DNA from: a bacterium
Lineage (GTDB): Bacteria; Patescibacteriota; Minisyncoccia; Phycocordibacterales; Phycocordibacteraceae
DNA length: 55,949 nucleotides
NCBI GenBank assembly: GCA_023264495.1
Contig: JAHFMM010000001.1
Location: 1 to 55,949 of the forward strand
Direction: 5' to 3'
The notes beneath the pieces are model-generated. The model saw only the letters and a program-made list of their open reading frames with translations. It made no database searches and had not been told where the DNA came from. Below, one piece after another: positions 5,651 through 49,603 of this stretch (position 1 is its first letter; each line of letters begins with the position of its first letter). Made by a program: the position numbers and the translations under genes.

Positions 5651-5654
5651 AGAA

Positions 5655-6186: not shown

Positions 6187-6195
6187 GCATCATTT

Positions 6196-6465: not shown

Positions 6466-6507
6466 ACTGGAATCGCTATGTCCCGAGTGTAATCACGAGG
6501 GACCTCC

Positions 6508-6546: not shown

Positions 6547-6550
6547 TTAC

Positions 6551-7165: not shown

Positions 7166-7176
7166 TTTTGAATACT

Positions 7177-7905: not shown

Positions 7906-7911
7906 ATCACT

Positions 7912-8277: not shown

Positions 8278-8279
8278 CC

Positions 8280-9128: not shown

Positions 9129-9138
9129 TCTTAATGTT

Positions 9139-9181
9139 AAATGCACACCCCCGCGGCCGAGAGGCCGCGGGCTTTGCATTT
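9139..9181 (+). terminator. GC-rich hairpin terminator after rplB
   Basis: CCCGCGGCC-GAGA-GGCCGCGGG, flanked by AAATGCA/TGCATTT. Confidence 0.6.
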
Positions 9182-9280
9182 AACAGTTTGTGTGATTATA
9201 TGCGCGAGGGAAGCAGTACATCCTATCGCAGCAAATCAATCAACCTGCCGCATCTGCGGCTCAACAAGAGGAGAAACATC

Positions 9281-10414
9281 ATGAGCACACCCGCTCGGCA
9301 GTACCCGAAGTTATTGGCGAATATTGCCGCTATCAACGCTATTTACAGCGTGCCGCCACAGGTCTTTGCAGTTGGCGATCAGGAAAACAGATCAGGGGAA
9401 AGTAAAGGATCGCTCGCAATCCTCGGATTCGCAAGAGCGAACGGGTTGTCGAACATTTTTGAAATCCTGCCGATGTTCGGCGAAGCATACGATGAGGTTC
9501 TCGCTGATCCAAATGGTACCAGTCATGCCAACATCCGTGCGCTCACGAAACATGGTATGGATGGGGTGGTGCTTGAACAAGGAGTCGAACTCCGTCCCGA
9601 GCTCAAGCTCATCCGCGATGCATTCCCGCACCGGGCTGAATTCAAGCCAGACAGTCATCCGAAAGATGTACGCGAAGCGGTCGAATTTGTCATCAGCGAA
9701 CTCGATTGCGGGCGTATGCGCGTTGCCATGAAGCTCGGTTATCGTTGGTGGACGAATCAGGCGGTGAAAGAAGCGATACTTCTATCGTTCAGGCTCAGGG
9801 ATAATCGCGTGATGAATGGCGGTGACATGCAGTATTTCGACAAGGTGGAGCCGAAATTCTCTGGCGCATTGCCAGCGGATTATTTCACGAATGCCGGCAT
9901 ACGTGTCGTGCCTCCCGCAGTTGCGCGCAAGGGTGCCTACATCGCTAAGAATGTGGTGCTGATGCCCTCCTATGTGAATATCGGCGCGTATGTAGACGAA
10001 GGCACGATGGTGGACACTTGGGCTACCGTCGGCTCCTGCGCACAGATCGGCAAGAACGTGCATTTGAGCGGCGGTGTCGGTATCGGCGGCGTGATCGAGC
10101 CCGTGCAGGCCAACCCGACTATCATCGAGGACAACTGTTTTATCGGCGCGCGCTCAGAGATTGTCGAGGGCGTGATCGTAGAAGAGGGCTCGGTGATCTC
10201 GATGGGCGTATTCATCGGCCAGAGCACCAAAATCCTCGATCGCGAGACCGGTGAAATAAGTTATGGCCGCATACCGGCAGGCTCGGTGGTGGTCAGCGGC
10301 AATTTGCCCGCCAAGGACGGCAGTCACAGCCTGTACTGCGCCGTAATCGTGAAGAAGGTGGATGCCCAGACACGCGGCAAAGTCGGTATCAACGAGTTGC
10401 TGCGGGGGATCTGA
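9281..10414 (+). CDS. dapD: tetrahydrodipicolinate N-succinyltransferase-like (DapD-type hexapeptide acyltransferase) with about 100 aa of N-terminal extension
   Basis: The C-terminal two thirds match my recollection of proteobacterial DapD ([62 protein letters not shown]). AAGAGGAG SD lies 7 nt before ATG 9281. Confidence 0.85.
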
Positions 10415-10473
10415 ACGACAACGTTCTTCGTGCGACATTGTGGCCTAGGGGGAACCCTGGGCCATCGTTTTAT

Positions 10474-11271
10474 CTAACGATACGCAGGTTTCAGGATGTC
10501 TGAGAGGTCAGTAAGCGGGATGCGGAGGGTTTGCGGCCCAGCAGAGTAGGGAGCGACTGCGTAAGGCGCAAAGAGGATGACGAGATCGTTATTGTCGAAG
10601 AAAAAATTATCGAAATTCTTTTCCTCGGGCGTCGTGCCGGGCAGAATGAAGTTCTTGATAAAATCAGCGTCAGCTAGCTTTGTGCCAATGACCGCAGGGA
10701 GCTTCGTGCGAGCTATGCGCGAGAGTGCCGCAAGATACTCAGACCCAGGGACAAAGAGGTCGGTAAGAGCGAGCGGCGCGCCAGCTTGCCCTGAGTGAGT
10801 CGAAGGGTCAGTATCGAAGGAGAAGGTTTTGAAGAATAGGTTCGGATGCGCTCCAAGCGTATCTTCAGTGATAGTAAAGATGTATGAAAGCGTATGTGCT
10901 GATGAGCCGATGAGATACGTGATCTGGAGAGACTCCTTGCGACCCTTGTCGAAGCCCATCATGACGATGTCATGGGAGGTAAGATTAGCAAAGTTCCCAT
11001 TGGTTTTAAATTTGGTAATCGTACTACTCACAAATTCCTTCATTAAAGCAACGGCTGCTGTATTTGCCACAGCGCTGACGGTTACTATGTCGGTACTGGA
11101 GGCGTAATTAGCAGCGATATCATAATAGGGCGCATGTTCTGTATATTTTGAGCCAGAAAGTATCGTTACCGGCATTTCTGGAGGCGAGGATGGGCGTATC
11201 GCCAAATAAGAAATAAGCCCGATACCGATAATAAGAAGGGCGAGACTGCCGATAAGAGTATCTCTACGCAT
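10474..11271 (-). CDS. membrane-anchored DUF3298/DUF4163-like (RsiV/PdaC C-terminal-like) protein
   Basis: N-terminal transmembrane segment, then an extracytoplasmic domain resembling DUF3298 proteins. TATACT lies 6 nt before ATG 11271. Confidence 0.5.
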   Translation of the reverse strand: MRRDTLIGSLALLIIGIGLISYLAIRPSSPPEMPVTILSGSKYTEHAPYYDIAANYASSTDIVTVSAVANTAAVALMKEFVSSTITKFKTNGNFANLTSHDIVMMGFDKGRKESLQITYLIGSSAHTLSYIFTITEDTLGAHPNLFFKTFSFDTDPSTHSGQAGAPLALTDLFVPGSEYLAALSRIARTKLPAVIGTKLADADFIKNFILPGTTPEEKNFDNFFFDNNDLVILFAPYAVAPYSAGPQTLRIPLTDLSDILKPAYR

Positions 11272-11358
11272 TCGGGTAGTATAGCAACACATGAGTCGTT
11301 AGAATCAGGCCACACTATAGCAGATGCGGTAATGGAGTGGAATGAGGGAGGCGATTTG

Positions 11359-11387
11359 TTGACGTTTCGAAGCAGGTACGGTATCTT
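11359..11387 (+). promoter_or_regulatory. putative promoter restarting the S10/spc operon at rpsS
   Basis: TTGACG (11359-11364), 17-nt spacer, TATCTT (11382-11387). Confidence 0.45.
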
Positions 11388-11425
11388 TCTTATATCCCGC
11401 AGCGCGGGCTTTTCATTACTTTCTT

Positions 11426-11776
11426 ATGGCACGGTCACTCAAGAAGGGTCCCTTCGTGGATGCAAAACTCCTGAAGAAGCTCGTCGATAAGAAACCAGCA
11501 ACGGCTGGCGTTATTAAGACATGGGCGCGCCGCAGCCAGATCAGTCCGGAGATGGTCGGATTCACCTTTGGCGTCCATAACGGCAAGAGCCACCTCGAAG
11601 TCTTGGTGTCTGAGGAGATGGTGGGGCATCGTCTCGGCGAATTCTCCCCGACAAAGAAATTCGTCCGGCACGGCGGTAAGATGCAGAAGGAGCTTGAGCA
11701 GAAGAAGCAGCAAGCTGAGATTACTGCCGCAAAGGCTGCAAAGGCTTCTCCGGCGCCTGCCGCGAAGAAGAAATAA
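11426..11776 (+). CDS. rpsS: 30S ribosomal protein S19 with a Lys/Ala-rich C-terminal tail
   Basis: S19 core ([10 protein letters not shown]...[10 protein letters not shown]) plus a tail of about 25 aa. Confidence 0.93.
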
Positions 11777-11784
11777 ATATATCT

Positions 11785-12105
11785 ATGGCAAACGCAACTC
11801 TTAAAAGCCACAACCAACCTCCGCGCAAAGTTCGGCTTGTAACGGATTTGGTGAAGGGTAAGAAGGTACCGGCTGCGCTTCTCGCACTTGAACACCTTCC
11901 TCGCCGCGCATCAGAGCCGGTACAGAAGCTTATCGAGAGCGCCGCCGCGAATGCAAAGTCCGCAGGCAAGAACGTCGATGAACTCACGGTGAAATCGATT
12001 CTCGTTGAGAATGCCGGCATGACGAAGAAGTATATGCCACGCGCCTTTGGACGCGCTTCAGCAATCCGCCGCCGCAAGAGCCGCGTCATCGTGACACTCG
12101 CATAA
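11785..12105 (+). CDS. rplV: 50S ribosomal protein L22
   Basis: L22-like sequence in the conserved position. Confidence 0.92.
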   Translation: MANATLKSHNQPPRKVRLVTDLVKGKKVPAALLALEHLPRRASEPVQKLIESAAANAKSAGKNVDELTVKSILVENAGMTKKYMPRAFGRASAIRRRKSRVIVTLA

Positions 12106-12115
12106 TTTACCTACT

Positions 12116-12814
12116 ATGACGCACATCGTACATCCCTACGCACATCGCCTCGGCATCATCCGAGATTGGAAGAGCCGCTGGTTTGCCGCTGATGCAAAGA
12201 GCTACCGCACTAATATCAAAGTCGATGAGACAATCCGCCGTTTCCTCACCAAGCGCTTGCGCGGGACCTACACGAGCGGTATCGAGATCGAACGCTCGGC
12301 AAACGAGCTCCGTGTAACGCTCTCGACTGCCCGCCCCGGGCTCGTCATTGGGCGCTCTGGCGAGAATGCCGCGAAGCTCCGCACCGAGCTTGCCGCGGTC
12401 GTACGCACGGCCGCGCCGAACGACACGCGTACTCTGAAGCTTGATGTCAATGAGATTCACCAACCCGAGACCGATGCGGCTGTGGTGGCATACATGATTG
12501 CCGAGGGTCTTGAGAAGCGCATGCCGTTCCGCCGGGTGATGAAGCAGACGATCGAGAAGGTGATTGCCGTGCGCGAGGTCGAAGGGGTGCGCATCATGAT
12601 CTCAGGTCGTCTTGGCGGCGCTGAGATGAGCCGCAAGGAGCAGCTTAAGAAGGGACGCATTCCATTGCAGACCTTCCGTGCTGATATTGATTTCGCACAC
12701 GAACAGGCCTACCTGCCGTATGGCGTCATCGGTATCAAGGTGTGGATCTATCGCGGTAATGTATACCAGGACAAGAAGGCTCCGGCACGCATCCCTGTCT
12801 CGGTCGCGGCATAA
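12116..12814 (+). CDS. rpsC: 30S ribosomal protein S3
   Basis: KH-domain S3 sequence (GIIRDWKSRWFA, RPGLVIGRSG). Confidence 0.95.
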   Translation: MTHIVHPYAHRLGIIRDWKSRWFAADAKSYRTNIKVDETIRRFLTKRLRGTYTSGIEIERSANELRVTLSTARPGLVIGRSGENAAKLRTELAAVVRTAAPNDTRTLKLDVNEIHQPETDAAVVAYMIAEGLEKRMPFRRVMKQTIEKVIAVREVEGVRIMISGRLGGAEMSRKEQLKKGRIPLQTFRADIDFAHEQAYLPYGVIGIKVWIYRGNVYQDKKAPARIPVSVAA

Positions 12815-12825
12815 TTGATTGACTT

Positions 12826-13248
12826 ATGTTATTCCCTAAAAAAGTAAAACACCGCAAGTGGCAGACGCAGCGCATGAGCGAGAAGCGTTTGAATCGTCCT
12901 GACACGCGCGGGGTCGAGGTTGTGTTCGGCTCGTTTGCGCTCAAGGCGCTCACGCCGGCGCGCATGACGAGCAACCAGATCGAGGCTGCGCGTAAAGTGC
13001 TTACCCGTGCGACTGCAAAGACAGGGAAGCTCTGGATCCGCATCTTTCCTGACCGACCGGTCACAGCAAAGCCGGCTGAGGTCGGTATGGGAAGCGGTAA
13101 GGGCGATCCGAAGCACTACGTCTTTCAGGTGCGCCCAGGCCGTGTCCTCTTCGAGATGGACGGCGTGCCTGAAGATATTGCGCGCGCGCATCTGCGACAA
13201 GCGGGGATGAAGCTCCCGATGAAGACGGCTGTGGTTGCGCGCCATTAA
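12826..13248 (+). CDS. rplP: 50S ribosomal protein L16
   Basis: MLFPKKVKHRK...GKGDPKHYV, typical L16. Confidence 0.95.
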   Translation: MLFPKKVKHRKWQTQRMSEKRLNRPDTRGVEVVFGSFALKALTPARMTSNQIEAARKVLTRATAKTGKLWIRIFPDRPVTAKPAEVGMGSGKGDPKHYVFQVRPGRVLFEMDGVPEDIARAHLRQAGMKLPMKTAVVARH

Positions 13249-13267
13249 TTGCTTTTTATACTCAGAT

Positions 13268-13489
13268 ATGACAAAAAGAGAAGTAATGACGACTAAGACC
13301 GATCAAGAGCTCGCAAAGCTCCTTGCCGATACACGCGCCGCTTTTCGTGAAGTGCGGTTTGCCGCTGCAGGCGCACGTGCGAAGGATCCGAATGCAGCGA
13401 AGAAGTCTCGGGCAACGATCGCGCGCATACGAAGCGAACAACACGCCCGTTCGGTGAGCTCGAGCCAAACTGCCGCTCCGGCCAAATAA
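13268..13489 (+). CDS. rpmC: 50S ribosomal protein L29
   Basis: Small helical protein at the L29 position. The ATG at 13268 was chosen. Confidence 0.85.
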   Translation: MTKREVMTTKTDQELAKLLADTRAAFREVRFAAAGARAKDPNAAKKSRATIARIRSEQHARSVSSSQTAAPAK

Positions 13490-13492
13490 CAT

Positions 13493-13768
13493 ATGGAACA
13501 AAAAACAACCAATCCCCAATCATTTGTCGGAACCGTCGTGAAGACGGCGATGAAAGACACGGCTACGGTGCGAGTCGACCGCTACGTGAAAGATGCGAAG
13601 TACAAGAAGTATTCGGTACGCTCGAAGAAGTTCCTCGCCCATAATCCGGGAGACGCGGCGCAAGTCGGCGACACGGTAACGATTGTCGCGACACGCCCGA
13701 TCTCGAAGATGAAGAGCTTCGCAATCGATTCGACCAAGACGGTGTCGGCGGCAAAAGAGAGCGAATAA
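13493..13768 (+). CDS. rpsQ: 30S ribosomal protein S17
   Basis: GTVVKTAMKDTATVRVDR...YKKY, S17-like. Confidence 0.9.
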   Translation: MEQKTTNPQSFVGTVVKTAMKDTATVRVDRYVKDAKYKKYSVRSKKFLAHNPGDAAQVGDTVTIVATRPISKMKSFAIDSTKTVSAAKESE

Positions 13769-13774
13769 ACATAT

Positions 13775-14152
13775 ATGTTGCAACCTCAATCAATCGTACG
13801 TGTGGCGGATAATTCGGGCGGGCAGGTTGCCCGCATCTTCAAGGTGCTCGGCGGGAGCAAGCGCCGCTATGCCGAGATCGGCGACACGGTGGTCGTCTCC
13901 ATCCAGACCGCGCAGCCGCGCAAGGCGGTAAAGAAGAAAGATATTTACCGCGCGATTGTCGTCCGCCAGACGAAGCCGTTTGGCCGCAAGGACGGTTCGC
14001 ACGTCCGTTTTGACGAGAATGCGGTCGTGCTCATCGAGAAGCAGGGTAAGGAGATGGCCCCGAAAGGGAATCGCATCTTCGGTCCGGTACCGCGCGAGCT
14101 CTCCGAGCTCGGCTGGCATTCTATCGTCTCGCTCGCCCCTGAAGTCGTATAA
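13775..14152 (+). CDS. rplN: 50S ribosomal protein L14
   Basis: MLQPQSIVRVADNSGG, typical L14. Confidence 0.95.
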   Translation: MLQPQSIVRVADNSGGQVARIFKVLGGSKRRYAEIGDTVVVSIQTAQPRKAVKKKDIYRAIVVRQTKPFGRKDGSHVRFDENAVVLIEKQGKEMAPKGNRIFGPVPRELSELGWHSIVSLAPEVV

Positions 14153-14157
14153 CGAAT

Positions 14158-14400
14158 ATGTCTATGCATGTCAAAAAAGGAGATACCGTGCGAGTGATTA
14201 CCGGAAAAGACAAGGGGAAGTCCGGGGTTATTGTGCGCGCGTTGCCGAAGGAAAATAAAGTCGTTATTGAAGGAGTTGCTCTCGTGAAGCGCCATGTCAA
14301 GGGGAAGGCGGGTCAGGTAGGGCATATCGCCGAGCGCCCACGTCCGATTAACGCATCAAACGTCCAGCTCACGAAGCAAGGTAGCGCCGCGAAGAAATAA
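14158..14400 (+). CDS. rplX: 50S ribosomal protein L24 (short form)
   Basis: KOW motif KKGDTVRVITGKDKGKSG. Confidence 0.9.
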   Translation: MSMHVKKGDTVRVITGKDKGKSGVIVRALPKENKVVIEGVALVKRHVKGKAGQVGHIAERPRPINASNVQLTKQGSAAKK

Positions 14401-14404
14401 ATCT

Positions 14405-14956
14405 ATGTCTACCACCAAACAAAAACAAGTATCAGCATATAAGGAATTGTCAGGTGCGTTCGGGTATACGAGCGTGATGCAGAGTCCGCGCATTACAAAA
14501 GTCATCGTCTCAACAGGCGTTGGTAAGAAGCGAGACAAGAAGGTCATCGAGGTTATCGAAAACCGTCTCGCGAAGATTACGGGACAGAAGCCGGCGCCGC
14601 GCGCCGCGCGCCTCTCGATCGCTTCGTTCAAGTTGCGCGAGGGCGACACGGTTGGCCTCCAAGTGACGCTCCGCGGCGCACGGATGTATGACTTCATCGA
14701 TAAGCTCATTCATATCGCGCTTCCTCGCACGCGCGACTTCCGCGGCCTCTCGGCCAAGGCGATCGATGCTATGGGGAACATGACCATCGGTATCAAAGAG
14801 AACTCGATTTTCCCTGAAACCTCCGATGAAGACTTGAAGGACGTCTTCGGGCTTGCTATCACCATCGTTACCACCGCTTCTTCGAAGGCAGAAGCAGAGG
14901 CATTCTTCCGTCATCTCGGACTCCCGCTCATCGTTGACGGAGAGAAGAAACGCTGA
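14405..14956 (+). CDS. rplE: 50S ribosomal protein L5
   Basis: L5-like sequence in the conserved position. Confidence 0.95.
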
Positions 14957-14991
14957 TAAGCTGTGCACACGCTCCTCGGGGCTTATTTTTT

Positions 14992-15261
14992 ATGGCAAAA
15001 AAGTCACAACTCGCACGATACGCCAAGAAGGCGAAACTCGTCATGAAGTACGCAGAGAAGCGTGCATCCTTGAAGGCGGCTGGCGATTCGGCCGGGCTCC
15101 AGGCGCTTCCGCGGAATTCGTCCCCTATCAGACTCAAGAATCGTTGCGCGATTACCGGTCGTTCGCGCGGCTATATGCGTACCTTCGGTATCTCGCGCAT
15201 CCTCTTCCGCGAGCTAGCACGCGAAGGCAAGATCCCGGGCGTTAAGAAAGCATCATGGTAA
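14992..15261 (+). CDS. rpsN: 30S ribosomal protein S14 (long form without the zinc-binding cysteines)
   Basis: [27 protein letters not shown]...W C-terminus. Confidence 0.9.
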
Positions 15262-15659
15262 CCGACCGCGTTGGCGATTTCATCATACGTCTCCAGAATG
15301 CCGCAATGGCCGGCAAGGCAGATGTGGTTGCGCCGCACTCTTCGCACCTCGCCGCTATCGCAGCGAAGCTTAAGGATCTCGGTTTTATCGCATCGGTCGA
15401 GACGCGCGTTCGCGATGAGGCCGGAGTCAAGAAAGATCTTGCCATACAGCTCGCCTATGATGATCGCGGACAGGCGCGGTTGCGAGGAGTAAAGCGAATC
15501 AGCTCTCCTGGCCGCCGACTGTATTCGTCGAGTACTGAGGCACACACAGTGAAGGGCGGTACCGGCGCGCGCATCATCTCATCGCCGCAGGGCATTGTGA
15601 CTGACCGTGAGGCGCGCAAGAACCATGTTGGCGGTGAGAACATGTTTGAAATCTGGTAA
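15255..15659 (+). CDS. rpsH: 30S ribosomal protein S8
   Basis: [13 protein letters not shown]...[10 protein letters not shown]8-like. Confidence 0.93.
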
Positions 15660-15664
15660 ATAGT

Positions 15665-16195
15665 ATGAGCCGTCTCGCGCGAAAACCAATAGCAGCAGGC
15701 AAGGCGACCGTCTCGGTCAATGATGGTGTCCTTACAGTGAAAGGGTCAAAAGGGACGCTCACGAAACGCGTGCATCCTACCGTTGCAGTCTCGGTTGCAG
15801 GGTCAGAAGTGACGGTTGCGCCGAAGAATCACTCACGCCTCGCGAAGGCGCTTACAGGAACCTTCGCCTCGCACGTGAAGAATATGACGCAGGGCGTCGA
15901 GACGCCATTCTTGAAGAAACTCATTCTCGAAGGAGTTGGATACCGTGTCGAGATCAAAGGCAAGGATGTTGTCCTCACAGTCGGGTTCTCGCACACCGTA
16001 CCGCTTACGATACCTGATGACATTACGGCAACGGTCGAGAAGAATGCCATCAAGCTCGAGAGTATCAACAAGGAGTCGCTCGGGCAGTTCGCGGCAAATA
16101 TTCGCCGCGTGAAGCCGCCAGAGCCGTACCTCGGGAAGGGTATTCGCTACGAAGGCGAAATAATCCGCCGCAAGCAGGGCAAAAAAGCCGTCTAA
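15665..16195 (+). CDS. rplF: 50S ribosomal protein L6
   Basis: SRLARKPI...GVGYRV...PEPYLGKGIRY. Confidence 0.93.
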   Translation: MSRLARKPIAAGKATVSVNDGVLTVKGSKGTLTKRVHPTVAVSVAGSEVTVAPKNHSRLAKALTGTFASHVKNMTQGVETPFLKKLILEGVGYRVEIKGKDVVLTVGFSHTVPLTIPDDITATVEKNAIKLESINKESLGQFAANIRRVKPPEPYLGKGIRYEGEIIRRKQGKKAV

Positions 16196-16202
16196 TCATC
16201 AT

Positions 16203-16553
16203 ATGCAAAACGCACCAACAACTAAAAGTGAACTCCGGAAGCGCCGCCACGCGCGCGTACGAGCGATTATCAAAGGAACGGCAACCCGTCCGCGCTTGGC
16301 GGTGTATCGCAGCAATCGTTTCGTCTCGGCACAGCTTATCGATGATGAGGCAGGGAAGACGATTGCGGCAGCGCATGGCCGCGAGTTTAAGGGTCCGCAA
16401 TCGATGCAGGCGAAATCGGTCGGCGAAGCTATTGCGACAAAAGCGAAGGATGCGAACATTACGACAATTGTTTTTGATCGCGCCGGATACCGCTATGGTG
16501 GGCAGGTAAAGACGCTTGCCGATGCGGCACGAGCAGGAGGACTTATTTTCTAA
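16203..16553 (+). CDS. rplR: 50S ribosomal protein L18
   Basis: RLAVYRSNRFVSAQLIDD...FDRAGYRYGGQVKTLADAARAGGL. Confidence 0.92.
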   Translation: MQNAPTTKSELRKRRHARVRAIIKGTATRPRLAVYRSNRFVSAQLIDDEAGKTIAAAHGREFKGPQSMQAKSVGEAIATKAKDANITTIVFDRAGYRYGGQVKTLADAARAGGLIF

Positions 16554-16557
16554 TAGT

Positions 16558-17178
16558 ATGACCACGACGATACCTATGGAGACAGAGCAAGAAACACTAC
16601 AGACCGTTGCGCCTGTCGAAACAGTCGTTGAGAATACCGACATGGCGGAGGTTGCGGCTGCTCCGGCTCAAGAGGGCCGAGGCCGTGGGGCTATTCGCGG
16701 CCGCGGGCAGCGTACTGGCGGCCGCACCCGTCCGCCGCGCGAGCGAGGAGAATTTGATCAGGTGACGATTGATGCCCGCCGCGTGGCGCGCGTGATGGCC
16801 GGCGGCCGCCGTTTCAATTTCAGTCTCGTGGTGGTGATTGGCGACCGCAAAGGTCGAGTCGGTGTCGGTCTCGGCAAGGGAGTCGATACGGCGCTTGCAA
16901 TAGATAAAGCGACTCGCGATGCGAAGAAACATCTCTTCACCGTCCCGCGCACCGACACCGGATCAATACCGCACCAGGTGTCGGCGAAATACGCTTCATC
17001 GGTAATTGAGATCATCCCATCGACCGGTCGCGGTCTCGTGGCCGGCTCGGCGATGCGCACAGTGCTCGATCTCGCCGGAGTGACCGATGTGGTGACCAAG
17101 ATCCACTCGCGCTCAAAGAACAAGCTCACGATCGCTCGCGCAACAGTCGCTGCGCTTAAGGAGCTCCGCGCCAAATAA
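16558..17178 (+). CDS. rpsE: 30S ribosomal protein S5 with an acidic then RG-rich N-terminal extension
   Basis: S5 core (RVARVMAGGRRFNFS...GDRKGRVGVGLGK). The ATG at 16558 was chosen. Confidence 0.93.
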   Translation: MTTTIPMETEQETLQTVAPVETVVENTDMAEVAAAPAQEGRGRGAIRGRGQRTGGRTRPPRERGEFDQVTIDARRVARVMAGGRRFNFSLVVVIGDRKGRVGVGLGKGVDTALAIDKATRDAKKHLFTVPRTDTGSIPHQVSAKYASSVIEIIPSTGRGLVAGSAMRTVLDLAGVTDVVTKIHSRSKNKLTIARATVAALKELRAK

Positions 17179-17189
17179 TTTCCTATACT

Positions 17190-17642
17190 ATGCAACTCAA
17201 CACCATCGCTCCCCGTGTGAAGAATAAGAAACCGCCCCATGTCGGTCGCGGCGGCAAGCGCGGCAAGACGAGCGGTCGCGGCGGAAAGGGGCAGACAGCG
17301 CGCGCCGGGCACAAAGTGCGCCCGGAGGTGCGTGATTTCATCAAGAAGTTCCCGAAGCTTCGCGGGCATGGCAAGAATCGTTCTCGCACGGTCCGAACGA
17401 ACCGTACGGTTGCGGCAGCAGTGAATCTTGCTGTGCTCGATGCCGCGTATCAAGCAGGAGAGACGGTCTCGCCGGCAACGCTTCTCGCAAAAGGCCTGGT
17501 GCGGCGAGTAAAAGGCCGTGTCCCGGAGGTTAAGATTCTTGGTATGGGAACGCTTACGAAAGCACTGATAGTGAGCGGCTGTGCTCTGTCTGCGACAGCG
17601 CGCGCTGCGGTCACGGCAGCGGGCGGCACTATCCATGACTAG
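17190..17642 (+). CDS. rplO: 50S ribosomal protein L15
   Basis: GRGGKRGKTSGRGGKGQTARAG motif. It starts 11 nt after rpsE, so there is no L30 gene. Confidence 0.9.
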   Translation: MQLNTIAPRVKNKKPPHVGRGGKRGKTSGRGGKGQTARAGHKVRPEVRDFIKKFPKLRGHGKNRSRTVRTNRTVAAAVNLAVLDAAYQAGETVSPATLLAKGLVRRVKGRVPEVKILGMGTLTKALIVSGCALSATARAAVTAAGGTIHD

Positions 17643-18909
17643 CGCTTTCTTGCATAAAGTAAAGATTGCCTTCAGCGACCCTGAGATACGCGCCCGCATC
17701 CTCTTCATCCTTGGAGCGCTTGCCGTCTTCCGTCTGCTCGCCGTCATCCCGATACCGGGAGTTGATAAGACAGCACTCGCTGCTTTCTTTGCCAACAATC
17801 AGTTTTTCGGACTTTTGAATATCTTCTCGGGCGGCGGGCTCTCGCAGCTCTCGATTGCTATGCTCGGAGTCGGGCCGTATATCACGGCTTCAATCGTCAT
17901 GCAGCTCGCGACTATCATCTTCCCGCAAGTGAAGCAGGCCTACTTTGAAGAAGGAGAGGCCGGGCGCGCGAAGTTTATCAACTGGAGCCGCTTGCTCACG
18001 ATCCCGGTAGCGTGTATATCGGGCATCGGTTTTCTCTTCCTCCTCCAGGGGCAGCATGTCATCGGTCAGTTGGGTGCCGTTGCGCTCATCGCGAATATCG
18101 CGCTCATCGCCGCCGGCTCGATGCTCCTCATGTGGATCGGCGAGCTGGTGACGGAGTTCGGTATCGGTAACGGCGTCTCGCTCATCATCCTCGCCGGCAT
18201 TCTCTCGAGCGTCCCTACAAATATCTCGCACAGTTTGTTTGCGGCGACAGCAGCAGACGTCCCGTCATATCTCGCCTTCACGCTCCTCGGGCTCGCGATG
18301 GTGTATGCGGTCGTAGTGGTGTCGGATGCCGAGCGTTCGATACCGATCGCCTATGCACGCGCGATCCGCGGCGCGGCGCTCGCACAAGGAGCGGCGACCT
18401 ATCTCCCGATTCGCCTCCTTCAGGCGGGGGTGATCCCGATCATTTTCGCACTCTCGCTCCTCCTTGTGCCGCAGATGGCACTCTCGGTACTCTCGACACT
18501 TCATGTTTCATTTGCTACCCCTGCCGACCTCTGGTACACCGCTTTCCTCTCGAATCCGTGGAAGTACGGCACCGTCTATTTCTTGCTCGTTATCCTTTTC
18601 ACCTACTTCTACACTGCCGTCACCTTTGAGCCGAAGCGTGTCGCTGAGAATCTCCAGAAGACCGGCGCCTTCGTCCCTGGCGTGCGTCCTGGCCGCGAGA
18701 CAGAAGAATATATCGCGCACGTGGTGAATCGCATCACTCTTCCGGGTGCCTGCTTCCTCGGCTTTCTCGCAGTCTCGCCATCGGTTATCCAGGGTCTTAC
18801 GGGCATCACCACCATCGTCCTCGGTGGCACCGCACTCCTCATCGCGGTGCAAGTCACTCTCGATCTCGCACACAAGATCGACGCACAAGTTTCTCTCCGC
18901 GAGTACTAG
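17635..18909 (+). CDS. secY: preprotein translocase subunit SecY
   Basis: Multi-pass membrane protein with SecY motifs (FRLLAVIPIPG, SIFALGVGPYITASI-like). ATG 17635 overlaps the rplO stop. Confidence 0.95.
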   Translation: MTSAFLHKVKIAFSDPEIRARILFILGALAVFRLLAVIPIPGVDKTALAAFFANNQFFGLLNIFSGGGLSQLSIAMLGVGPYITASIVMQLATIIFPQVKQAYFEEGEAGRAKFINWSRLLTIPVACISGIGFLFLLQGQHVIGQLGAVALIANIALIAAGSMLLMWIGELVTEFGIGNGVSLIILAGILSSVPTNISHSLFAATAADVPSYLAFTLLGLAMVYAVVVVSDAERSIPIAYARAIRGAALAQGAATYLPIRLLQAGVIPIIFALSLLLVPQMALSVLSTLHVSFATPADLWYTAFLSNPWKYGTVYFLLVILFTYFYTAVTFEPKRVAENLQKTGAFVPGVRPGRETEEYIAHVVNRITLPGACFLGFLAVSPSVIQGLTGITTIVLGGTALLIAVQVTLDLAHKIDAQVSLREY

Positions 18910-19043
18910 GGATTTAGAGAACTGTGGATAACGTTGCAGCGCGTGGAATTTAGGTGTAATCTATGACGCATGGGGCAAATCCGTTTTAAACGGGCTTGCC
19001 CCCTTGCCTATTAACTAGAGATAGAGAATGAAGGAGGTGTGCC

Positions 19044-21301: not shown

Positions 21302-21483
21302 TTGTCCACAACCGTCCCTTGGAGGAGGAGTATACTGATAGATGGAGCTGTTCTTGAAAACGCAACTTGCTTCTCCCAAGGGAAAATGAGCATTAAGGTG
21401 CCTTGGTGAATCCCGCAAGGGAATCCGATAGACGCCGTTACTCTTCCCACCTGGCATATTAAGTTGCCAGAGAGGACAGTTCC

Positions 21484-21520
21484 GCACAAACCCGCCATAG
21501 TGGCGGGTTTGTGCGTCTTG
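21484..21520 (+). terminator. hairpin terminator closing the ndk-downstream structured spacer
   Basis: GCACAAACCCGCC-ATAGT-GGCGGGTTTGTGC, the same stem family as 1208-1230. Confidence 0.55.
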
Positions 21521-21536
21521 AGTATACTGTGGCTAT

Positions 21537-23156
21537 ATGCCACCGAAACGATTTGAAGGGAAGTTCGGGATACCTTCTTCGCATACGATTGACTCGCAGC
21601 TCACCTCAGCGCTGTACCGGCTCCCTGAGTCGATGGACTCGAAAGAAATAGGGGAACAAGTAGAAAAGATTTCTGCACTCGTCAATAAGCAGATTGAGAC
21701 GAATCATCTCGAAGATAGTGAGAAGCGAGGCGAACTGCTTTCTCAAACAGAAAAACAGACGCTCTATCTCAAGCTTGCCCGTCACTATGAGGATAACGGC
21801 GAGTCGGCGCATATCGACATCTCCACGATGGTAGACGCTCTCGTCGAATCGCGGCGCTTCTTGCAGAGCGATCGAGGAAGTATCGGGAAACTCTTCGAGT
21901 TGCATGAGATGAAGACGCTCCAACGCATCGCTGAACTGCGAAGAGAGCGGGCTGAAATGACTGGCACAGAATCCCTCAACCCCTATGAGAATCTCCTCGA
22001 GACCAATGATGGGAAATATTATCTCGCACGGCTCCTCAATATGCCTCACCTCGAAACAGAGTCCAAGTATCTCGGGCATTGCGTCGGCACCAGCACGAGC
22101 TATATCAACAAGATGAAGAAGGGCGATGTCGAGATATTCTCCTTCAGAGATACACAGACGCATGAGCCGCTCATAACTATAGAGTACGACACGAAGTCGC
22201 ACCGCTTGTTGCAAGTGAAGGGAGTCGATGATTATATACCAAAGCTTTTCGATTCGTATTCGAGCGACCTCATCGAGACCATCGAGCGCTTGCCCGAGAC
22301 CGTGAATGACGAAGGCGAGCCGCGACTCGTCTCAAGCACTGAGGCGCGAGACATGAAGCAACTCGCTGGTATCAGAGACAAGACGGCAGACAAAACATCT
22401 CTTGATAGAACAGAACTTCGTTTTCTCTATGAAGTCGACGCACCGATACAGCGTTTTGATACAGAACCAGATCCTCTCATCAAGACACTCCTTGATGCAC
22501 GGGATACCACTACCGACCTACCCATCATCTTCGACTGCACACCCGAACAGATCGCCCACTCCATTTCAGAAATAACTCCCGACACAAAGGCCTATGTCGG
22601 CCCGCTTGAGAAGGGTATCTTCGACGCTCTCTCGCCCGCTCTCGAGCACGTGTATACGAAGTTCCCTGAAGGTCGCGTCAAGTTCCACTCCATCGAGCTC
22701 GGCACCGGCATCGAGAGCGGCCCGGCATTTGAGCAAGCGATACGTGATAAGGACATGGAGGTAGGTGGTTACGCAAAGCATCTCCTGGAGAGTCCCGACT
22801 TCAAAGTTGTAGGCGAACACACCAACGCTGATCTTGTTGAAATGTCAGTCGCCGCACTCGGATTCGACAGATCAACACGCTACGACGCTATCTGTGCACG
22901 CGCCCTCGAGCTCGGCCTCGAGCTCTGCCCGGCTGAAGTCGGCCCGCAACTCCGCCTCCAATACACCGATCAACCAATGAACAGTTATCTGCGAATCGCA
23001 ATGAAAGCTATTAGCGACCGCGACGGCGACCCGCGCTTCTTCCGCGTGGATCGCGATGACGTCGGCCTCTGGCTCTACACGGACTACGGGAAGCCCTTCT
23101 ACGTTTGGGGTACTGACTTTCGCTTTGTGTTCCTCCGTCCCCGCAAGGCGCTTTGA
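21537..23156 (+). CDS. large hypothetical protein with a PcfJ-like central motif
   Basis: ESKYLGHCVGTSTSYINKMKKGDVEIFSFRD resembles the PcfJ-like (PF14284) HC motif. The C-terminal approximately 300 aa are unrecognised. Confidence 0.6.
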   Translation: MPPKRFEGKFGIPSSHTIDSQLTSALYRLPESMDSKEIGEQVEKISALVNKQIETNHLEDSEKRGELLSQTEKQTLYLKLARHYEDNGESAHIDISTMVDALVESRRFLQSDRGSIGKLFELHEMKTLQRIAELRRERAEMTGTESLNPYENLLETNDGKYYLARLLNMPHLETESKYLGHCVGTSTSYINKMKKGDVEIFSFRDTQTHEPLITIEYDTKSHRLLQVKGVDDYIPKLFDSYSSDLIETIERLPETVNDEGEPRLVSSTEARDMKQLAGIRDKTADKTSLDRTELRFLYEVDAPIQRFDTEPDPLIKTLLDARDTTTDLPIIFDCTPEQIAHSISEITPDTKAYVGPLEKGIFDALSPALEHVYTKFPEGRVKFHSIELGTGIESGPAFEQAIRDKDMEVGGYAKHLLESPDFKVVGEHTNADLVEMSVAALGFDRSTRYDAICARALELGLELCPAEVGPQLRLQYTDQPMNSYLRIAMKAISDRDGDPRFFRVDRDDVGLWLYTDYGKPFYVWGTDFRFVFLRPRKAL

Positions 23157-27164: not shown

Positions 27165-27551
27165 ATGTCTGAAGGAACACCGCAACTCACCCCAGAGGGA
27201 ATAGCTAATCCTCGTGAGAAATTCAGAGATCCAGGAAGTGAGCAGCTTAAAGACCCAGAATTTATAAAGGCACTAGAGGAATTAAAGACTGTTTATTCAC
27301 GGAGGTTACACGAAATAAGAGAAAAGATTTCTGTAATGGAAGCAGACAAAGAAGTCCTGCATTCTGTACAAGAGTTCATGCTATCCAAGAATATTCGTTT
27401 GCATGTGCGTATTCCACGAGAGCTTGAAAAAGGTAATCCAGGCAGTGGACAACTGTACGCTGGGAATGATTTTGAGTTGCTTACGCGACAAGAGAAATGG
27501 CATATGGCGCGTCTATCTGAAGTTAAGAAGATGCTATTGGGTGACTTTTGA
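27165..27551 (+). CDS. hypothetical protein (128 aa)
   Basis: ORF in a stretch that looks AT-rich by eye. No family recognised and no SD. Confidence 0.4.
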   Translation: MSEGTPQLTPEGIANPREKFRDPGSEQLKDPEFIKALEELKTVYSRRLHEIREKISVMEADKEVLHSVQEFMLSKNIRLHVRIPRELEKGNPGSGQLYAGNDFELLTRQEKWHMARLSEVKKMLLGDF

Positions 27552-27575
27552 AGACGCAATCAAATGTGGTACACT
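27548..27575 (+). promoter_or_regulatory. promoter of the second TA pair (leaderless)
   Basis: TTGAAG, 16-nt spacer, TGGTACACT. The ATG follows 7 nt downstream. Confidence 0.45.
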
Positions 27576-27582
27576 TCGACCT

Positions 27583-27777
27583 ATGACCACCGCCCAGCTC
27601 AACAAGCAGATAGGGAGTATCGTCGAGCAGAAACTCCTCGAGTTTTTGGGCGACCCTGATGAAGGGCTTGAACTCAAGAAATCATTTATCACTGAGCTCA
27701 AGAAGAGCATAAAGACGAAAGGGAAGACCGTACCGCTCTCGATAGTAATGAAGAAGTATGGCATCCGTCGAGTTTAG
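27583..27777 (+). CDS. putative antitoxin (64 aa)
   Basis: Overlaps the downstream RelE/ParE toxin by 20 nt. The ATG at 27583 was chosen inside the 27403..27777 ORF. Confidence 0.5.
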   Translation: MTTAQLNKQIGSIVEQKLLEFLGDPDEGLELKKSFITELKKSIKTKGKTVPLSIVMKKYGIRRV

Positions 27778-28009
27778 GGCGCATGCATTGAAGGAACTCG
27801 AAGAACTCGACCCCGTCATCGGAGAACGCATTGTCGAGAAGATATTTTGGCTTGAGAAGAATTTTGTTCTCGTCACGCCCGAGAGATTGCACTACAACTT
27901 TCGAGAACTGTATAAACTCCGCGTTGGTGATTATCGAGCGGTGTATTCCCTCAAGGGAGAGGTCATCACGATTGAAAAGGTGCGGCATCGACGAGAGGTC
28001 TACAAATAA
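27758..28009 (+). CDS. RelE/ParE-family toxin
   Basis: LYKLRVGDYRAVYSLKGEVITIEKVRHRREVY signature. Confidence 0.8.
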   Translation: MASVEFRAHALKELEELDPVIGERIVEKIFWLEKNFVLVTPERLHYNFRELYKLRVGDYRAVYSLKGEVITIEKVRHRREVYK

Positions 28010-28023: not shown

Positions 28024-28938
28024 CTACTTCGCGAGCTGACTCGGAGAGGAGAGGACGATTTCGGCCTTGCCTTGGTAAGAAGAGATCTTGCCAGAGATTG
28101 TGACAGTTTTGCCAGTATAGCGGGAAAGGTCGCCGAATTTTTTCGCATCATCAGCGAAGATAACAGCCGAGAATGGGCAGGTCTTATAGTCCTTACAGAA
28201 ATCGAGAAAGACAGTTCCGCTCTTGCTTGTGTATGCACGCATGAGCGTGGCGTGCACATAGGCAACTTCACCGATGTGTTTTGGCGCCTCAGTGTAATCG
28301 ATAGTGCCGATAGAAACGTTCGCGGCCGCATTCGCGGCCGCGGTATTACCGGCATATGCGGTGAAGAGTTGTCGCAAGATATTCTCATAGGCCTGTCGAA
28401 GTCCGGAATCAGTTCCTATTTCGAGTATTTCATCATTTATCGTTGTTGCCGAGCTTGTCCAGTTGTAGCTCCCCGTCGCATATGCTTTCTCTGTTACGAG
28501 TGTTTTGATATGCATGATGCCGTTGCCCGTCAAATGTTTTTCAAAAACGATTGGAATACCGGCATCTTGGAGTTCTTTAAGAATTGGTGCGCCATAACTT
28601 CCTGTCGCTTGACTCATATCTAGTACGCCGCGCACATCGACTCCGCGCCCTTTTGCGGCAATAAGCGCATCAGCAACTGATGAGAGTGTGAAAGTATAGA
28701 TTGCAAAATAGATGCGATCATGAGCATCAGCAATGAGAGCTATAAGTTCTTTGTCGTTCTGTTTCTTATCGAGACTGTAGATGACACGCACCGTGCCGAG
28801 TGTTGGCGCAGTTACCGTTTGTGCTTGCACGCTCACGCATGCGCCACTTGGAGCACCCCCGCTCATGGTGTACCCGATCCCACCCGCCGCGAGCGCGATT
28901 ACCGCGACCGCTCCTACTCGCAACATCTTTTGTTTCAT
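28024..28938 (-). CDS. membrane-anchored/secreted PLD-family (HKD) nuclease with a C-terminal OB-fold-like domain
   Basis: N-terminal hydrophobic segment and a single HKD motif (MHIKTLVTEKAYATGSYNWT). The C-terminal approximately 90 aa look OB-like. Confidence 0.8.
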   Translation of the reverse strand: MKQKMLRVGAVAVIALAAGGIGYTMSGGAPSGACVSVQAQTVTAPTLGTVRVIYSLDKKQNDKELIALIADAHDRIYFAIYTFTLSSVADALIAAKGRGVDVRGVLDMSQATGSYGAPILKELQDAGIPIVFEKHLTGNGIMHIKTLVTEKAYATGSYNWTSSATTINDEILEIGTDSGLRQAYENILRQLFTAYAGNTAAANAAANVSIGTIDYTEAPKHIGEVAYVHATLMRAYTSKSGTVFLDFCKDYKTCPFSAVIFADDAKKFGDLSRYTGKTVTISGKISSYQGKAEIVLSSPSQLAK

Positions 28939-28958
28939 GCATCCAGTATACTGTGCGC

Positions 28959-29660
28959 ATGGCACTTGTATTTGATATAGAAACAGTCGGAGAAGCGTGG
29001 GATGCGCTCGATGAGACGACACAGCACAATCTCGCATGGTATCTCAAAGAATCGTCCCGCTCTGAAGAAGAATACGAATATGAAATGAAAGAGCTTCGCG
29101 AAGGAATGGGGCTCTCGCCCTTGACGGGATTCATCGTCGCGATTGGGGTCTATGACACCGAAACGAAAAAAGGTGCGGTGTACTATGATGCGCGCGATAC
29201 GCAGAGTGAGCCGTATGAAGAGGAGGGCATCAAGTATGAAGCGATGGGGGAGAAAGAGATGCTTGAACAGTTTTGGAAGGTTGCGGGTGTTTGCCACGAA
29301 TTCGTATCGTTTAATGGACGTGGTTTTGATGCGCCATTTCTCGCTATCCGTTCGATGGTGCACGGCGTGAAGCCGACAAGGGACCTGCTCTCCAACCGCT
29401 ATCTTTCGATGCAACGCGGGTGCACCCACATCGACCTTATGGATCAACTTACTTTCTACGGTGCGGCACGCTTCAGGAAGAGTCTGCACCTGTTTTGTCG
29501 TGCGCTCGGTATCGAGAGCCCTAAGGCAGGAGGCACGACCGGAGACGATGTCGCGGCGCTCTACGCTGCAGGAAAATATGCGGACATCGCGCACTATAAT
29601 GCTGGCGATCTATTTGCAACCGCAGCTCTTTACGAGCGTTGGCACAATACCTTGCGCTAA
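28959..29660 (+). CDS. RNase H-fold 3'-5' exonuclease (PolB-exonuclease-like, PF10108-type)
   Basis: MALVFDIET..., FNGRGFDAPFL, HIDLMD and YNAGDL motifs. Confidence 0.75.
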   Translation: MALVFDIETVGEAWDALDETTQHNLAWYLKESSRSEEEYEYEMKELREGMGLSPLTGFIVAIGVYDTETKKGAVYYDARDTQSEPYEEEGIKYEAMGEKEMLEQFWKVAGVCHEFVSFNGRGFDAPFLAIRSMVHGVKPTRDLLSNRYLSMQRGCTHIDLMDQLTFYGAARFRKSLHLFCRALGIESPKAGGTTGDDVAALYAAGKYADIAHYNAGDLFATAALYERWHNTLR

Positions 29661-43488: not shown

Positions 43489-44223
43489 TTACGAGAGGGT
43501 GAGATGCTCGTTGAAGCTTATGACACGCCATCCGCGAGCTGGTGAGAATAGTTGCCACGGATGGAATTCGATTATCGTAATGCCGGCATTGTCAGAAATA
43601 TTGAAGAAAGAAAGTTTTACGAAATCGCTCGCGTGGAGCCGTTCTCGGTAGAGGAGATACGCGACAATCATCTTGAGGATGTGGTGGTGAGTAATAATGA
43701 TCGTGCCATCTCGGCCTTGCTGTGCGAGAAGCGCGAGGCAAGTTCGCGCACGCTTCTTCAGTTCTGAGAATGTTTCTTCGTCAGAGAAAAGATAGTCGTC
43801 ATCGTGGTAGGCAAGATCCATCTGATCGACGATGCGGATGACTTCGGGATCCCGCGTGTTCTTGCCGATGATCTCGCTCGGGTTTCTTCTCTCGGTGAAA
43901 AGAAGAGAAGGGATGATAGGGACATGAAGATTGGCATTGATGATCGCCGCAGTCTCAAGCGCTCTCGGATAGGCGCTTGAGACGATGCGTGCTATGCGGA
44001 GGGGGCGCAAATACTTTCCGATCATGACCGCCTGTTCTCGCCCGCGTTCTGACAGTTCTCCAGTCTCCCCTTGCCGAATGTGTTGCGCATTAAGCAGGGT
44101 TTCGCCATGACGAATAAGATAGAATCGCCGCGGTCGCATGAACAAGAGCAGTATGAGGATACCGGAAACGCATGCGATTGTGGCGAGGACAGGGTCTATC
44201 TCAAGAGAGGCGGGCATGTGCAT
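43489..44223 (-). CDS. histidine phosphatase (phosphoglycerate mutase-like) family protein with an N-terminal transmembrane segment
   Basis: LIRHGETLLN catalytic motif. The start may be ATG 44217, which has TATACT 8 nt upstream. Confidence 0.8.
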   Translation of the reverse strand: MHMPASLEIDPVLATIACVSGILILLLFMRPRRFYLIRHGETLLNAQHIRQGETGELSERGREQAVMIGKYLRPLRIARIVSSAYPRALETAAIINANLHVPIIPSLLFTERRNPSEIIGKNTRDPEVIRIVDQMDLAYHDDDYLFSDEETFSELKKRARTCLALLAQQGRDGTIIITHHHILKMIVAYLLYRERLHASDFVKLSFFNISDNAGITIIEFHPWQLFSPARGWRVISFNEHLTLS

Positions 44224-44252
44224 CTAGTATACCCGAATGATACACTTCACCC

Positions 44253-45740
44253 ATGAAGTTACATAAGTATCTCGCTTCTCATGGATGGATGTACAGCATC
44301 GTCGCTCTCGTTGTCATTGTGAGCGGCTATATATTCTTTGCGAGACACACCGGCTCACCCTATCAATTCATCACCGTCACGCGGGGTTCTATCGAGCAGA
44401 CGGTCTCGGTGACGGGTAATACGACGCCCACAAAGAGCGTCTCGCTCGGCTTTCAGAATACCGGCACGATCGCGCATCTCTATTATTCTTTGGGAGATCG
44501 GGTAGCGGCAGGCGCGATCATTGCCGAGCTTAACACGGCAAGTCTCTCGGCTGCATTCGCACAGGCACAGGCGAATCTGGCGGTTGCACAGGCGAATCTG
44601 GCAGGACTCACTGCGGGCACGCGGCCCGAACAGCTCGCCATCGATCAAAACGCTGTCATGCAAGACCAGATTGCGCTCAGGAATGTGATCATGAGCGCAT
44701 ATGCCGCTGCCGACACAGCCGTTCATAACACTGCCGATCAGCTCTTTATCAATCCACGCACCACAAATGCCGCGCTTACGGTTGTCGTCCCTGATGCGAA
44801 CCTTGTCAATCAGATAGTGCAAGAACGTAGCGCTCTCGAGCCAGTGCTCGCCAATTGGAATGCCGAGAACATTACTGCCGTACAGGCATCAGAGAATCTC
44901 ACGCAAATCACCGTCTTCCTTAATGATCTTGCTGCTGCTCTCGCTAAGACACAACCCTCGGCAAACATCTCAGCCACAACCTTGAGTTCGTACGCATCGG
45001 CAATAGCGGCCGCACGCACAAGCGTCACTGCTGCAGCGAGCGCATTGACCGCGGCACAGTCGGTGCTCACGGCCGCAGATGGCGCACTCGCACTCGCGCA
45101 GGCGGGTCCGACGCCACAGGCAGTAGCGGCGGGGGAGGCGCAGGTCGCGGTGGCGCGCGCAAGTGTCGCAAGCGCTCGAGCTGCTCTTGAGAACGCAGAG
45201 ATTGTCGCGCCTATAGGCGGCACCATCATCGGACTCGACGCGAAGGTCGGCCAGCTCGCGACGCCCGGCACGCCGCTTGTCGCTATCATCGGTACCGGCG
45301 GTTTTGAGGTCGATGTTGGCGTCTCGGAGACGGATATCGGCAAGCTCACGGTCGCAGACGCGGCGTCGATGACGCTCGACGCCCTCCCGAACGAGACCTT
45401 CACTGGCAAGGTATTCTATATCGCTCCCGCGCAGACCAACACGCAAGGTGTGATCACGTATCTGATCAAAATATCCTTCGACAAGCCGGACGCGCGCTTC
45501 AAGAGCGGGCTCACGACGAATGTAACTATCGAATCGAAGCGCGACGACAATGTCCTCATACTCCCGCAGTATGCGATCTTGCAGAACGATAGCGGCACCT
45601 TCGTTGAGATCTTGTCTAGGGGCGGAGCGACGACGAGCCCCGTCACGCTCGGCATACAAGACCAAAAAGGAAACGTCGAAGTGCTCCGTGGTGTGAGCGA
45701 GGGGGAGCAGGTGATTAATATCGGGCTCAAGCCACAATGA
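44253..45740 (+). CDS. HlyD/MacA-like periplasmic adaptor (membrane fusion) protein
   Basis: N-terminal transmembrane segment, long Ala-rich coiled coil and barrel domains. Translationally coupled to the ABC genes. Confidence 0.8.
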   Translation: MKLHKYLASHGWMYSIVALVVIVSGYIFFARHTGSPYQFITVTRGSIEQTVSVTGNTTPTKSVSLGFQNTGTIAHLYYSLGDRVAAGAIIAELNTASLSAAFAQAQANLAVAQANLAGLTAGTRPEQLAIDQNAVMQDQIALRNVIMSAYAAADTAVHNTADQLFINPRTTNAALTVVVPDANLVNQIVQERSALEPVLANWNAENITAVQASENLTQITVFLNDLAAALAKTQPSANISATTLSSYASAIAAARTSVTAAASALTAAQSVLTAADGALALAQAGPTPQAVAAGEAQVAVARASVASARAALENAEIVAPIGGTIIGLDAKVGQLATPGTPLVAIIGTGGFEVDVGVSETDIGKLTVADAASMTLDALPNETFTGKVFYIAPAQTNTQGVITYLIKISFDKPDARFKSGLTTNVTIESKRDDNVLILPQYAILQNDSGTFVEILSRGGATTSPVTLGIQDQKGNVEVLRGVSEGEQVINIGLKPQ

Positions 45741-49582: not shown

Positions 49583-49603
49583 ACATAGTATACTGAGCCT
49601 ATC

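Follow-up and report, generated by a model that had tools for sequence, protein, structure and literature searches.

A palindromic −10 box probably serves as a shared promoter of two divergent nuclease genes in a Patescibacteria genome

Two nuclease genes stand back to back in the stretch of DNA from an uncultured Patescibacteria bacterium analysed here (contig JAHFMM010000001.1, positions 1 to 55,949; hereafter the window). A gene for a PLD-family nuclease on the − strand and a gene for a 3′-5′ exonuclease on the + strand are separated by a total gap of 20 bp. The original prediction placed a single palindromic −10 box between them. Our analysis indicates that the 20-bp spacer is most likely a complete, −10-only, bidirectional promoter of this Paceibacteria/Kaiserbacteria-like genome, in which one palindromic box very probably starts both nuclease genes right at their start codons. 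What was established directly is described first: the geometry of the sequence, how well it is conserved, where the two genes start and how widely this architecture is used in the genome.

Geometry of the spacer and its conservation

The intergenic sequence reads ...tttCATgcatccAGTATACTgtgcgcATGgca.... From left to right it consists of the PLD start codon (28936-28938; CAT on the + strand, ATG on the − strand), the 6-nt spacer, or discriminator, of the PLD promoter (28939-28944; gcatcc on the + strand, ggatgc on the − strand), the palindromic box AGTATACT (28945-28952, both strands), the 6-nt discriminator of the exonuclease promoter (28953-28958, + strand; gtgcgc) and the exonuclease start codon ATG (28959-28961, + strand). 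The box contains two overlapping −10 hexamers. TATACT of the exonuclease promoter occupies positions 28947-28952 of the + strand, with A-11 at 28948 and T-7 at 28952; TATACT of the PLD promoter occupies positions 28950-28945 of the − strand, with A-11 paired with T28949 and T-7 paired with A28945. The hexamers overlap by 4 bp, and within the box A-11 of one promoter is paired with −10 of the other and T-12 with −9, which corresponds to a 21-bp register. Both 6-nt spacers are too short for a leader and contain no Shine-Dalgarno site. A C is found at −1 on each side: on the PLD side (G28939 of the + strand) just ahead of the predicted start base A28938, and on the exonuclease side (C28958) just ahead of the predicted start base A28959. 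The coordinates, the presence of TATACT on both strands, the 6-nt distance to each ATG and the 4-bp overlap had all been given exactly in the original prediction. The arrangement had also been called perfectly symmetric, which is true of CATGC / AGTATACT / GCATG (18 of the 26 positions) but breaks down at the four inner bases of either spacer; leaving aside the start codons, the dyad spans only 8 bp.

The PLD gene (28024-28938, − strand) encodes a Nuc-like nuclease of 304 aa that matches Pfam PLDc_2 (1.2e-21). When solved structures were searched in PDB, the Nuc endonuclease 1BYR was the best match (2e-10), followed by NucT (1.1e-4). The N-terminus of the protein (MKQKMLRVGAVAVIALAAGG) resembles a signal peptide, with positive charge first and a hydrophobic stretch after it. 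The exonuclease gene (28959-29660, + strand) encodes a DnaQ/PolB-exo-like protein of 233 aa (MALVFDIE...) that matches Pfam DNA_pol_B_exo2 (4.4e-23) and RNase_H_2 (5e-12). A PDB search with this protein returned only designed repeat proteins, matched via a Glu/Tyr-rich segment; these matches are spurious and were ignored. Related exonuclease loci, 46 in number, were found in Patescibacteria metagenome-assembled genomes labelled Paceibacterota, Kaiserbacteria or Minisyncoccia, and the closest of them align from residue 1.

Orthologues of both proteins align from residue 1, with identities of 72-85% for the exonuclease and 54-74% for the PLD protein, and ATG is conserved on both sides in all 18 genomes. 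Several orthologues have an in-frame stop just ahead of the proposed ATG and no alternative start, for example in loci L001 and L046 for the exonuclease and in L002, L003 and L010-L013 for the PLD gene. Only 10 of the 18 genomes have the GTG two codons ahead of the exonuclease ATG, and in most orthologues of the PLD protein the second Met (codon 5) is replaced by Leu or Ile. On other contigs, genes called independently specify the same products of 304 aa and 233 aa, again 20 bp apart. Thus, the orthologue alignments, the upstream in-frame stops and the independent gene calls fix both start codons at 28938 and 28959, where they had originally been placed. A longer, 337-aa PLD open reading frame (ORF) starting from ATG 29037 was considered and rejected; the added part runs antisense to the exonuclease gene, and orthologues lack it or have it interrupted.

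Sixteen related Paceibacteria/Kaiserbacteria-like genomes share the divergent arrangement of the PLD and exonuclease genes. With the window included, the spacer is 20 bp long in eight distinct genomes, 21 bp in two, 22 bp in two, 23 bp in one, 25 bp in one and 52-92 bp in four. Information content (maximum 2 bits), computed over the eight genomes with a 20-bp spacer, was 1.93 bits for the box, 1.06 bits for the exonuclease-side 6-nt spacer, 1.12 bits for the PLD-side 6-nt spacer, 1.14 bits for the PLD 5′ coding sequence and 1.66 bits for the exonuclease 5′ coding sequence. Among 19 related loci, which together cover 95 kb, 12 carry the box AGTATACT, always at this site and only there. On the exonuclease side, TATA[AC]T is located exactly 6 nt before the ATG in every one of 18 genomes. 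For the divergent gene, the distance from TANNNT to the ATG is 6 nt in 12 of the 18, 7 nt in two, 8 nt in two, 9 nt in one and 11 nt in one. Of the 36 bases at −1, 35 are pyrimidines (18/18 on the PLD side, 17/18 on the exonuclease side), and the A of ATG is at +1 throughout, a pattern that matches the usual start-site rule, a pyrimidine/purine step, as given in the Mycobacterium tuberculosis report (PMC3898074). The shared palindromic −10 box and the 6-nt leaderless geometry that had been proposed for both strands are therefore upheld by the sequence and by strong comparative data.

Variants of the locus are informative. In L015 (AGTATATACT) the box is two bases longer and 6 nt are retained on both sides. 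In L005 (AGTATAAT) the palindrome is broken and each strand still carries a good hexamer, TATAAT being present on one strand only. In L006, L011, L012 and L016, the four genomes with 52-92-bp spacers, two separate boxes are found, one beside each gene and 6-8 nt from its own ATG. It follows that selection maintains a −10 hexamer at a set spacing from each start codon and not the palindrome itself. A reading of GTATAC as a restriction site or an uptake sequence was rejected in view of its single conserved position across species and its rarity elsewhere. The expanded spacers of L012 (2941-3003) and L006 (2939-3003) are inverted repeats with a −10 box in each arm (AGTATACCCAG ... CTGGGTATACT in L012). 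Shared and split boxes may interconvert through insertion or deletion at the dyad centre.

The box is also used elsewhere in the window, whose G+C content is 54.5%. Four copies of AGTATACT were observed compared to 0.17 expected, a number reached in none of 100 shuffles. TATACTN6ATG was observed three times (0.14 expected) and the relaxed two-sided pattern CAT-N6-ANTATANT-N6-ATG once (0.00 expected). The remaining three copies of AGTATACT also head transcription units, none of them divergent. All three are on the + strand: one lies directly 3′ of a terminator hairpin and is followed after 8 nt by the ATG of a PcfJ-like gene (21521-21539), one is located 9 nt before the TTG start of a gene for a 1,730-aa surface protein, also directly 3′ of a hairpin (49587-49606), and one heads a 179-nt structured stretch, a possible small RNA (21329-21344). 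More generally, the distance from TANNNT to candidate ATGs peaks at 6 and 8 nt. Alignment of 17 boxes gave TAtAcT preceded by purines at −14/−13 and often by T at −15; no −35 consensus was found in these 17 boxes. This −10-only, leaderless-rich pattern is that mapped experimentally in Deinococcus deserti (PMC4007540) and M. tuberculosis (PMC3898074).

A second pair with a shared box, noticed in the original prediction as a similar overlap, is real. A ComF-like gene (−) and a PilM-like gene (+) are separated by the 17-bp spacer GGTAGTATTATTCTCAC (55611-55633, both strands); the names comF and pilM are taken solely from sub-threshold Pfam hits (Pribosyltran and PilM_2). TATTAT on the + strand and AATAAT on the − strand have 5 bp in common, and 6 nt separate each hexamer from the ATG of its gene. 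Here A-11 is paired to T-7, which is the canonical 18-bp geometry. The pair is kept in L048, L050 and L051 with a 14-bp spacer (a 15-bp arrangement), the hexamers again being 6 nt from both ATGs. Across the window and these three loci the hexamers keep A at position 2 and T at position 6; the overlap register shifts and both readings are retained. A survey of divergent short spacers in 428 kb yielded, beyond the PLD/exonuclease and comF/pilM pairs, too few genuine pairs for a spacing distribution.

Proposed mechanism and relation to known bidirectional promoters

The following account of where transcription starts, of translation without a leader, of steric exclusion and of the resulting expression is inferred from the sequence. 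RNA polymerase with the primary sigma factor would recognize either TATACT on the + strand (28947-52) and start at A28959, or TATACT on the − strand (28950-45) and start at A28938, with DNA opened from −11 to about +2 in either direction. Transcription would start 7 nt past the hexamer, at the pyrimidine(−1)/A(+1) step, where the A is the first base of the start codon. Both mRNAs would therefore be leaderless and translated from a 5′-terminal AUG, and the −10 geometry and the start codons together predict a separation of 21 bp between the divergent start sites. The self-complementary TATA core is common to both hexamers, and the CT of each hexamer provides the AG purine pair that is favoured in this genome at −14/−13 of the opposite promoter. 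The open complex of one promoter would melt or cover the recognition element of the other, leaving room for one polymerase; since the upstream duplex of each promoter (−12 outwards) would be melted by the other, simultaneous occupancy should be excluded. Occupancy by one polymerase at a time had been anticipated in the original prediction, and by analogy it agrees with the published statement that two RNA polymerases are unable to bind a bidirectional promoter at once (Warman 2026, NAR, PMC12825309).

It had further been proposed that the two nucleases are expressed in a mutually exclusive or stochastically switched manner, but this does not follow from steric exclusion. In five of five bidirectional Escherichia coli promoters tested, basal activity was too low for polymerase competition; interference was observed only with one direction strongly activated, and cell-to-cell noise was then reduced (PMC12825309). 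Reciprocal stimulation between divergent start sites has also been reported (bioRxiv 10.1101/2020.01.31.928960). Since interference is absent at basal activity in E. coli and the preprint reports stimulation, switched expression is not the default expectation. No activator or operator site is visible at the PLD/exonuclease locus. Because there is neither an operator nor a −35 element, the two enzymes, a secreted Nuc-like nuclease and a 3′-5′ exonuclease of the cytoplasm, would probably be expressed together and constitutively, with no switch.

The closest known systems are the bidirectional promoters described by Warman et al., in which divergent start sites 7-25 bp apart share −10 symmetry (bioRxiv 10.1101/2020.01.31.928960). 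The commonest spacing in that work is 18 bp, in which A-11 pairs with T-7; spacings of 29, 23, 12, 10 and 7 bp were also found. The PLD/exonuclease locus resembles this class in that opposite-strand −10 hexamers overlap in one short A/T-rich element, which is conserved in orthologues, and in that the predicted start sites lie on either side of it, within the defining 7-25-bp range. In the Warman class a short element suffices for transcription in both directions; here two-way transcription is a prediction from the geometry. The A-11/T-7 pairing, which defines the commonest subclass only, is found in comF/pilM and not in PLD/exonuclease, and the 23-bp geometry is seen in the orthologue L015. 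Unlike the E. coli cases, the PLD/exonuclease pair has hexamers that overlap by 4 bp in a 21-bp register, with T-12/A-11 paired to A-9/T-10, an arrangement unlisted there. Its predicted start sites coincide with the start codons, which would leave no untranslated region on either side, and it has no −35 element and no regulator site; the lineage, Patescibacteria, is also different.

The second group of precedents is formed by −10-only promoters directly upstream of leaderless starts in D. deserti (PMC4007540) and M. tuberculosis (PMC3898074). In these organisms no −35 element is conserved, transcription starts at a purine flanked by a pyrimidine, and closely juxtaposed divergent promoters are common; prpD/Rv1129c of M. 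tuberculosis is a divergent pair with both mRNAs leaderless (PMC3898074). TANNNT ending 6-7 nt before the start codon, a feature of leaderless genes, is found here on both strands. Start sites were mapped in these two organisms, unlike those of the PLD/exonuclease locus, which are predicted. A single shared palindromic box filling a 20-bp spacer is not among the arrangements described in the consulted parts of the two reports. Divergent overlapping promoters with mutual binding exclusion, some with leaderless transcripts, are also known from controller systems of restriction-modification (R-M) loci and from the qseC/qseM switch (PMC5333194; PMC8789080). In contrast to the present locus, where the overlap is in the −10 elements and no operator or regulator is seen, those systems switch via a C-protein on paired operators and overlap in their −35 regions. 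When the literature was searched for a divergent pair in which both mRNAs are leaderless and a single −10 box is shared, only prpD/Rv1129c and the operator-based R-M and qseC switches were retrieved, an absence that is not proof.

The PLD/exonuclease promoter is thus a clean, conserved example of a type known from other bacteria and introduces no new mechanism; what is distinctive is the unusual 21-bp register and the unstudied phylum. Bidirectional promoters are known mainly from start-site maps of E. coli, and this locus offers a minimal natural case in which the start codons would themselves reveal both start sites. It is conserved in more than 15 species, which shows that both readings are under selection. 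Ultra-small genomes of the Candidate Phyla Radiation apparently pack genes with −10-only, leaderless, shared promoters, and recognition of this architecture should aid annotation of gene starts and prediction of promoters in a phylum with almost no transcription data. The 26-bp element is also a compact part for testing polymerase competition against reciprocal stimulation.

A broader interpretation is speculative and, in our view, doubtful: the preferred extended −10 element (AGTATACT) is palindromic, so that strong promoters would be intrinsically two-way; the 20-bp, −35-less spacer would be the whole control region, hard-wiring an exported Nuc-like nuclease to a cytoplasmic exonuclease as a DNA-scavenging pair; and divergent start-codon distances of 14, 17, 20 and 22 bp would read out the allowed polymerase registers. 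If the last point is true, it would provide a sequence-only route to bidirectional promoters in uncultured bacteria.

Alternative explanations

Several observations weigh against a two-way promoter at this locus. The PLD-side distance drifts to 9 and 11 nt in two genomes, where short leaders must be allowed. The same palindrome is found at three non-divergent units, so its symmetry may partly reflect polymerase preference and not two-way selection. The 21-bp register is absent from the spacings reported as preferred in E. coli (bioRxiv 10.1101/2020.01.31.928960). Transcript-derived contigs beginning at the ATG were sought, and the contigs found were all metagenomic and carried both genes; the locus is present in identical form in the samples of ERZ27279563, SRR14366760 and SRR14366756. 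Finally, a consensus promoter scan made no call at the PLD/exonuclease box; it was silent because it requires a −35 element and is uninformative for promoters of this type.

The PLD-side drift also makes a one-way promoter the strongest rival. The box would then serve the exonuclease only, the PLD gene would be transcribed from a promoter inside the exonuclease coding region or carry a leader, and TATACT on the − strand would be a by-product of the preference for AG at −14/−13. The invariant 6 nt on the exonuclease side in 18/18 genomes, against 6-11 nt on the PLD side, is consistent with this, as are the occurrence of AGTATACT at the three non-divergent promoters and the generality of purines at −14/−13 in this genome. 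We nevertheless consider it unlikely. Where the spacer is expanded (L006, L011, L012), the PLD gene does not lose the element but has its own TANNNT 6-8 nt from its ATG; a hexamer is always kept or regained by this gene. The longer box of L015 preserves 6 nt on both sides, the pyrimidine at −1 on the PLD side is present in all 18 genomes, and the consensus promoter scan revealed no promoter-like site in the first part of the exonuclease gene.

If, on the other hand, the box is no promoter at all, both genes would be read from inside the opposite gene, and the A/T-rich box would be an unstructured stretch on which ribosomes land, Shine-Dalgarno sites being absent from this organism. Operon-internal genes of the window do have A/T-rich stretches, and no Shine-Dalgarno site, before their ATG. 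These signals, however, are loose A/T runs beside TAA stops, unlike the invariant TATA[AC]T at 6 nt with its G/C-rich variable spacer. The geometry, moreover, fits the −12..−7/+1 rule, with a pyrimidine at −1 and A at +1, and at 21521 and 49587 the same box comes after a terminator hairpin, a place at which a new transcript has to start. This explanation is very improbable. Least probable of all, and hardly credible, is that the palindrome is the operator of a dimeric regulator controlling both nuclease genes: an exact, conserved 8-bp palindrome between two functionally related genes would suit it, but the dyad is only 8 bp apart from the start codons and falls short of an extended dyad (about 12 bp or more), its flanks are unconserved at about 1.1 bits, in L006, L012 and L016 the element is divided into two halves, each of which stays with its own gene, L005 (AGTATAAT) loses the palindrome and retains a good hexamer on both strands, unrelated genes are headed by the same 8-mer, and no regulator gene is linked to the locus. 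The bidirectional promoter accordingly remains the preferred reading.

Other promoters and neighbouring genes in the window

Further candidate promoters of the leaderless type were identified in the window. They precede a DUF3298 gene (TGcTATACT-6-ATG; 11269-11283, − strand), adk (TAGACT-6), a gene at 34404 (TGaTATGCT-6), an HlyD-family gene (TACACT-6; ATG 44253, + strand) and a histidine phosphatase gene (TATACT-8; ATG 44217, − strand). The last two form a third divergent pair (44215-44255) with a 35-bp spacer and two separate boxes, GGTATACT located 8 nt before ATG 44217 and TACACT located 6 nt before ATG 44253. The DUF3298 gene (10474-11283) is on the opposite strand within the ribosomal protein cluster, between rplB-like and rpsS-like genes. 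In that cluster (232-19000) neither GGAG nor GAGG was found upstream of about 18 ribosomal protein genes. These genes have instead a TAA stop followed by an 8-12-nt A/T-rich spacer, often ending ...ACT ATG, a pattern that suggests initiation independent of Shine-Dalgarno sites, or re-initiation, in this lineage.

The ORF of the 1,730-aa surface protein encodes a purple acid phosphatase N-terminal domain, fn3 and Big_3 domains. Its apparent start, TTG 49604, is 9 nt past the box, which would imply a leader of about 3 nt and a non-AUG start; the first in-frame ATG occurs only at 49826, past a signal-peptide-like segment.

Two AGTATACT boxes 192 bp apart (21329-21536) flank the 179-nt stretch between an NDK-domain gene and the PcfJ-like gene. 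The stretch folds into one long irregular hairpin and a 14-bp G/C-rich terminator hairpin, with a minimum free energy of −78.9 kcal/mol (z = −7.5). An Rfam search with the structured stretch (21342-21520) gave no family match. It could be a small RNA, or it could carry a 15-aa ORF (ATG 21342) preceded by GGAGGAGG, which would be odd in a genome without Shine-Dalgarno sites.

On the other side of the PLD gene, 15 bp separate its 3′ end from the end of a gene for a ParE-family toxin (27758-28009; Pfam 1.3e-08). A small ORF upstream of the toxin gene and overlapping it (27403-28009 region) is probably the antitoxin.

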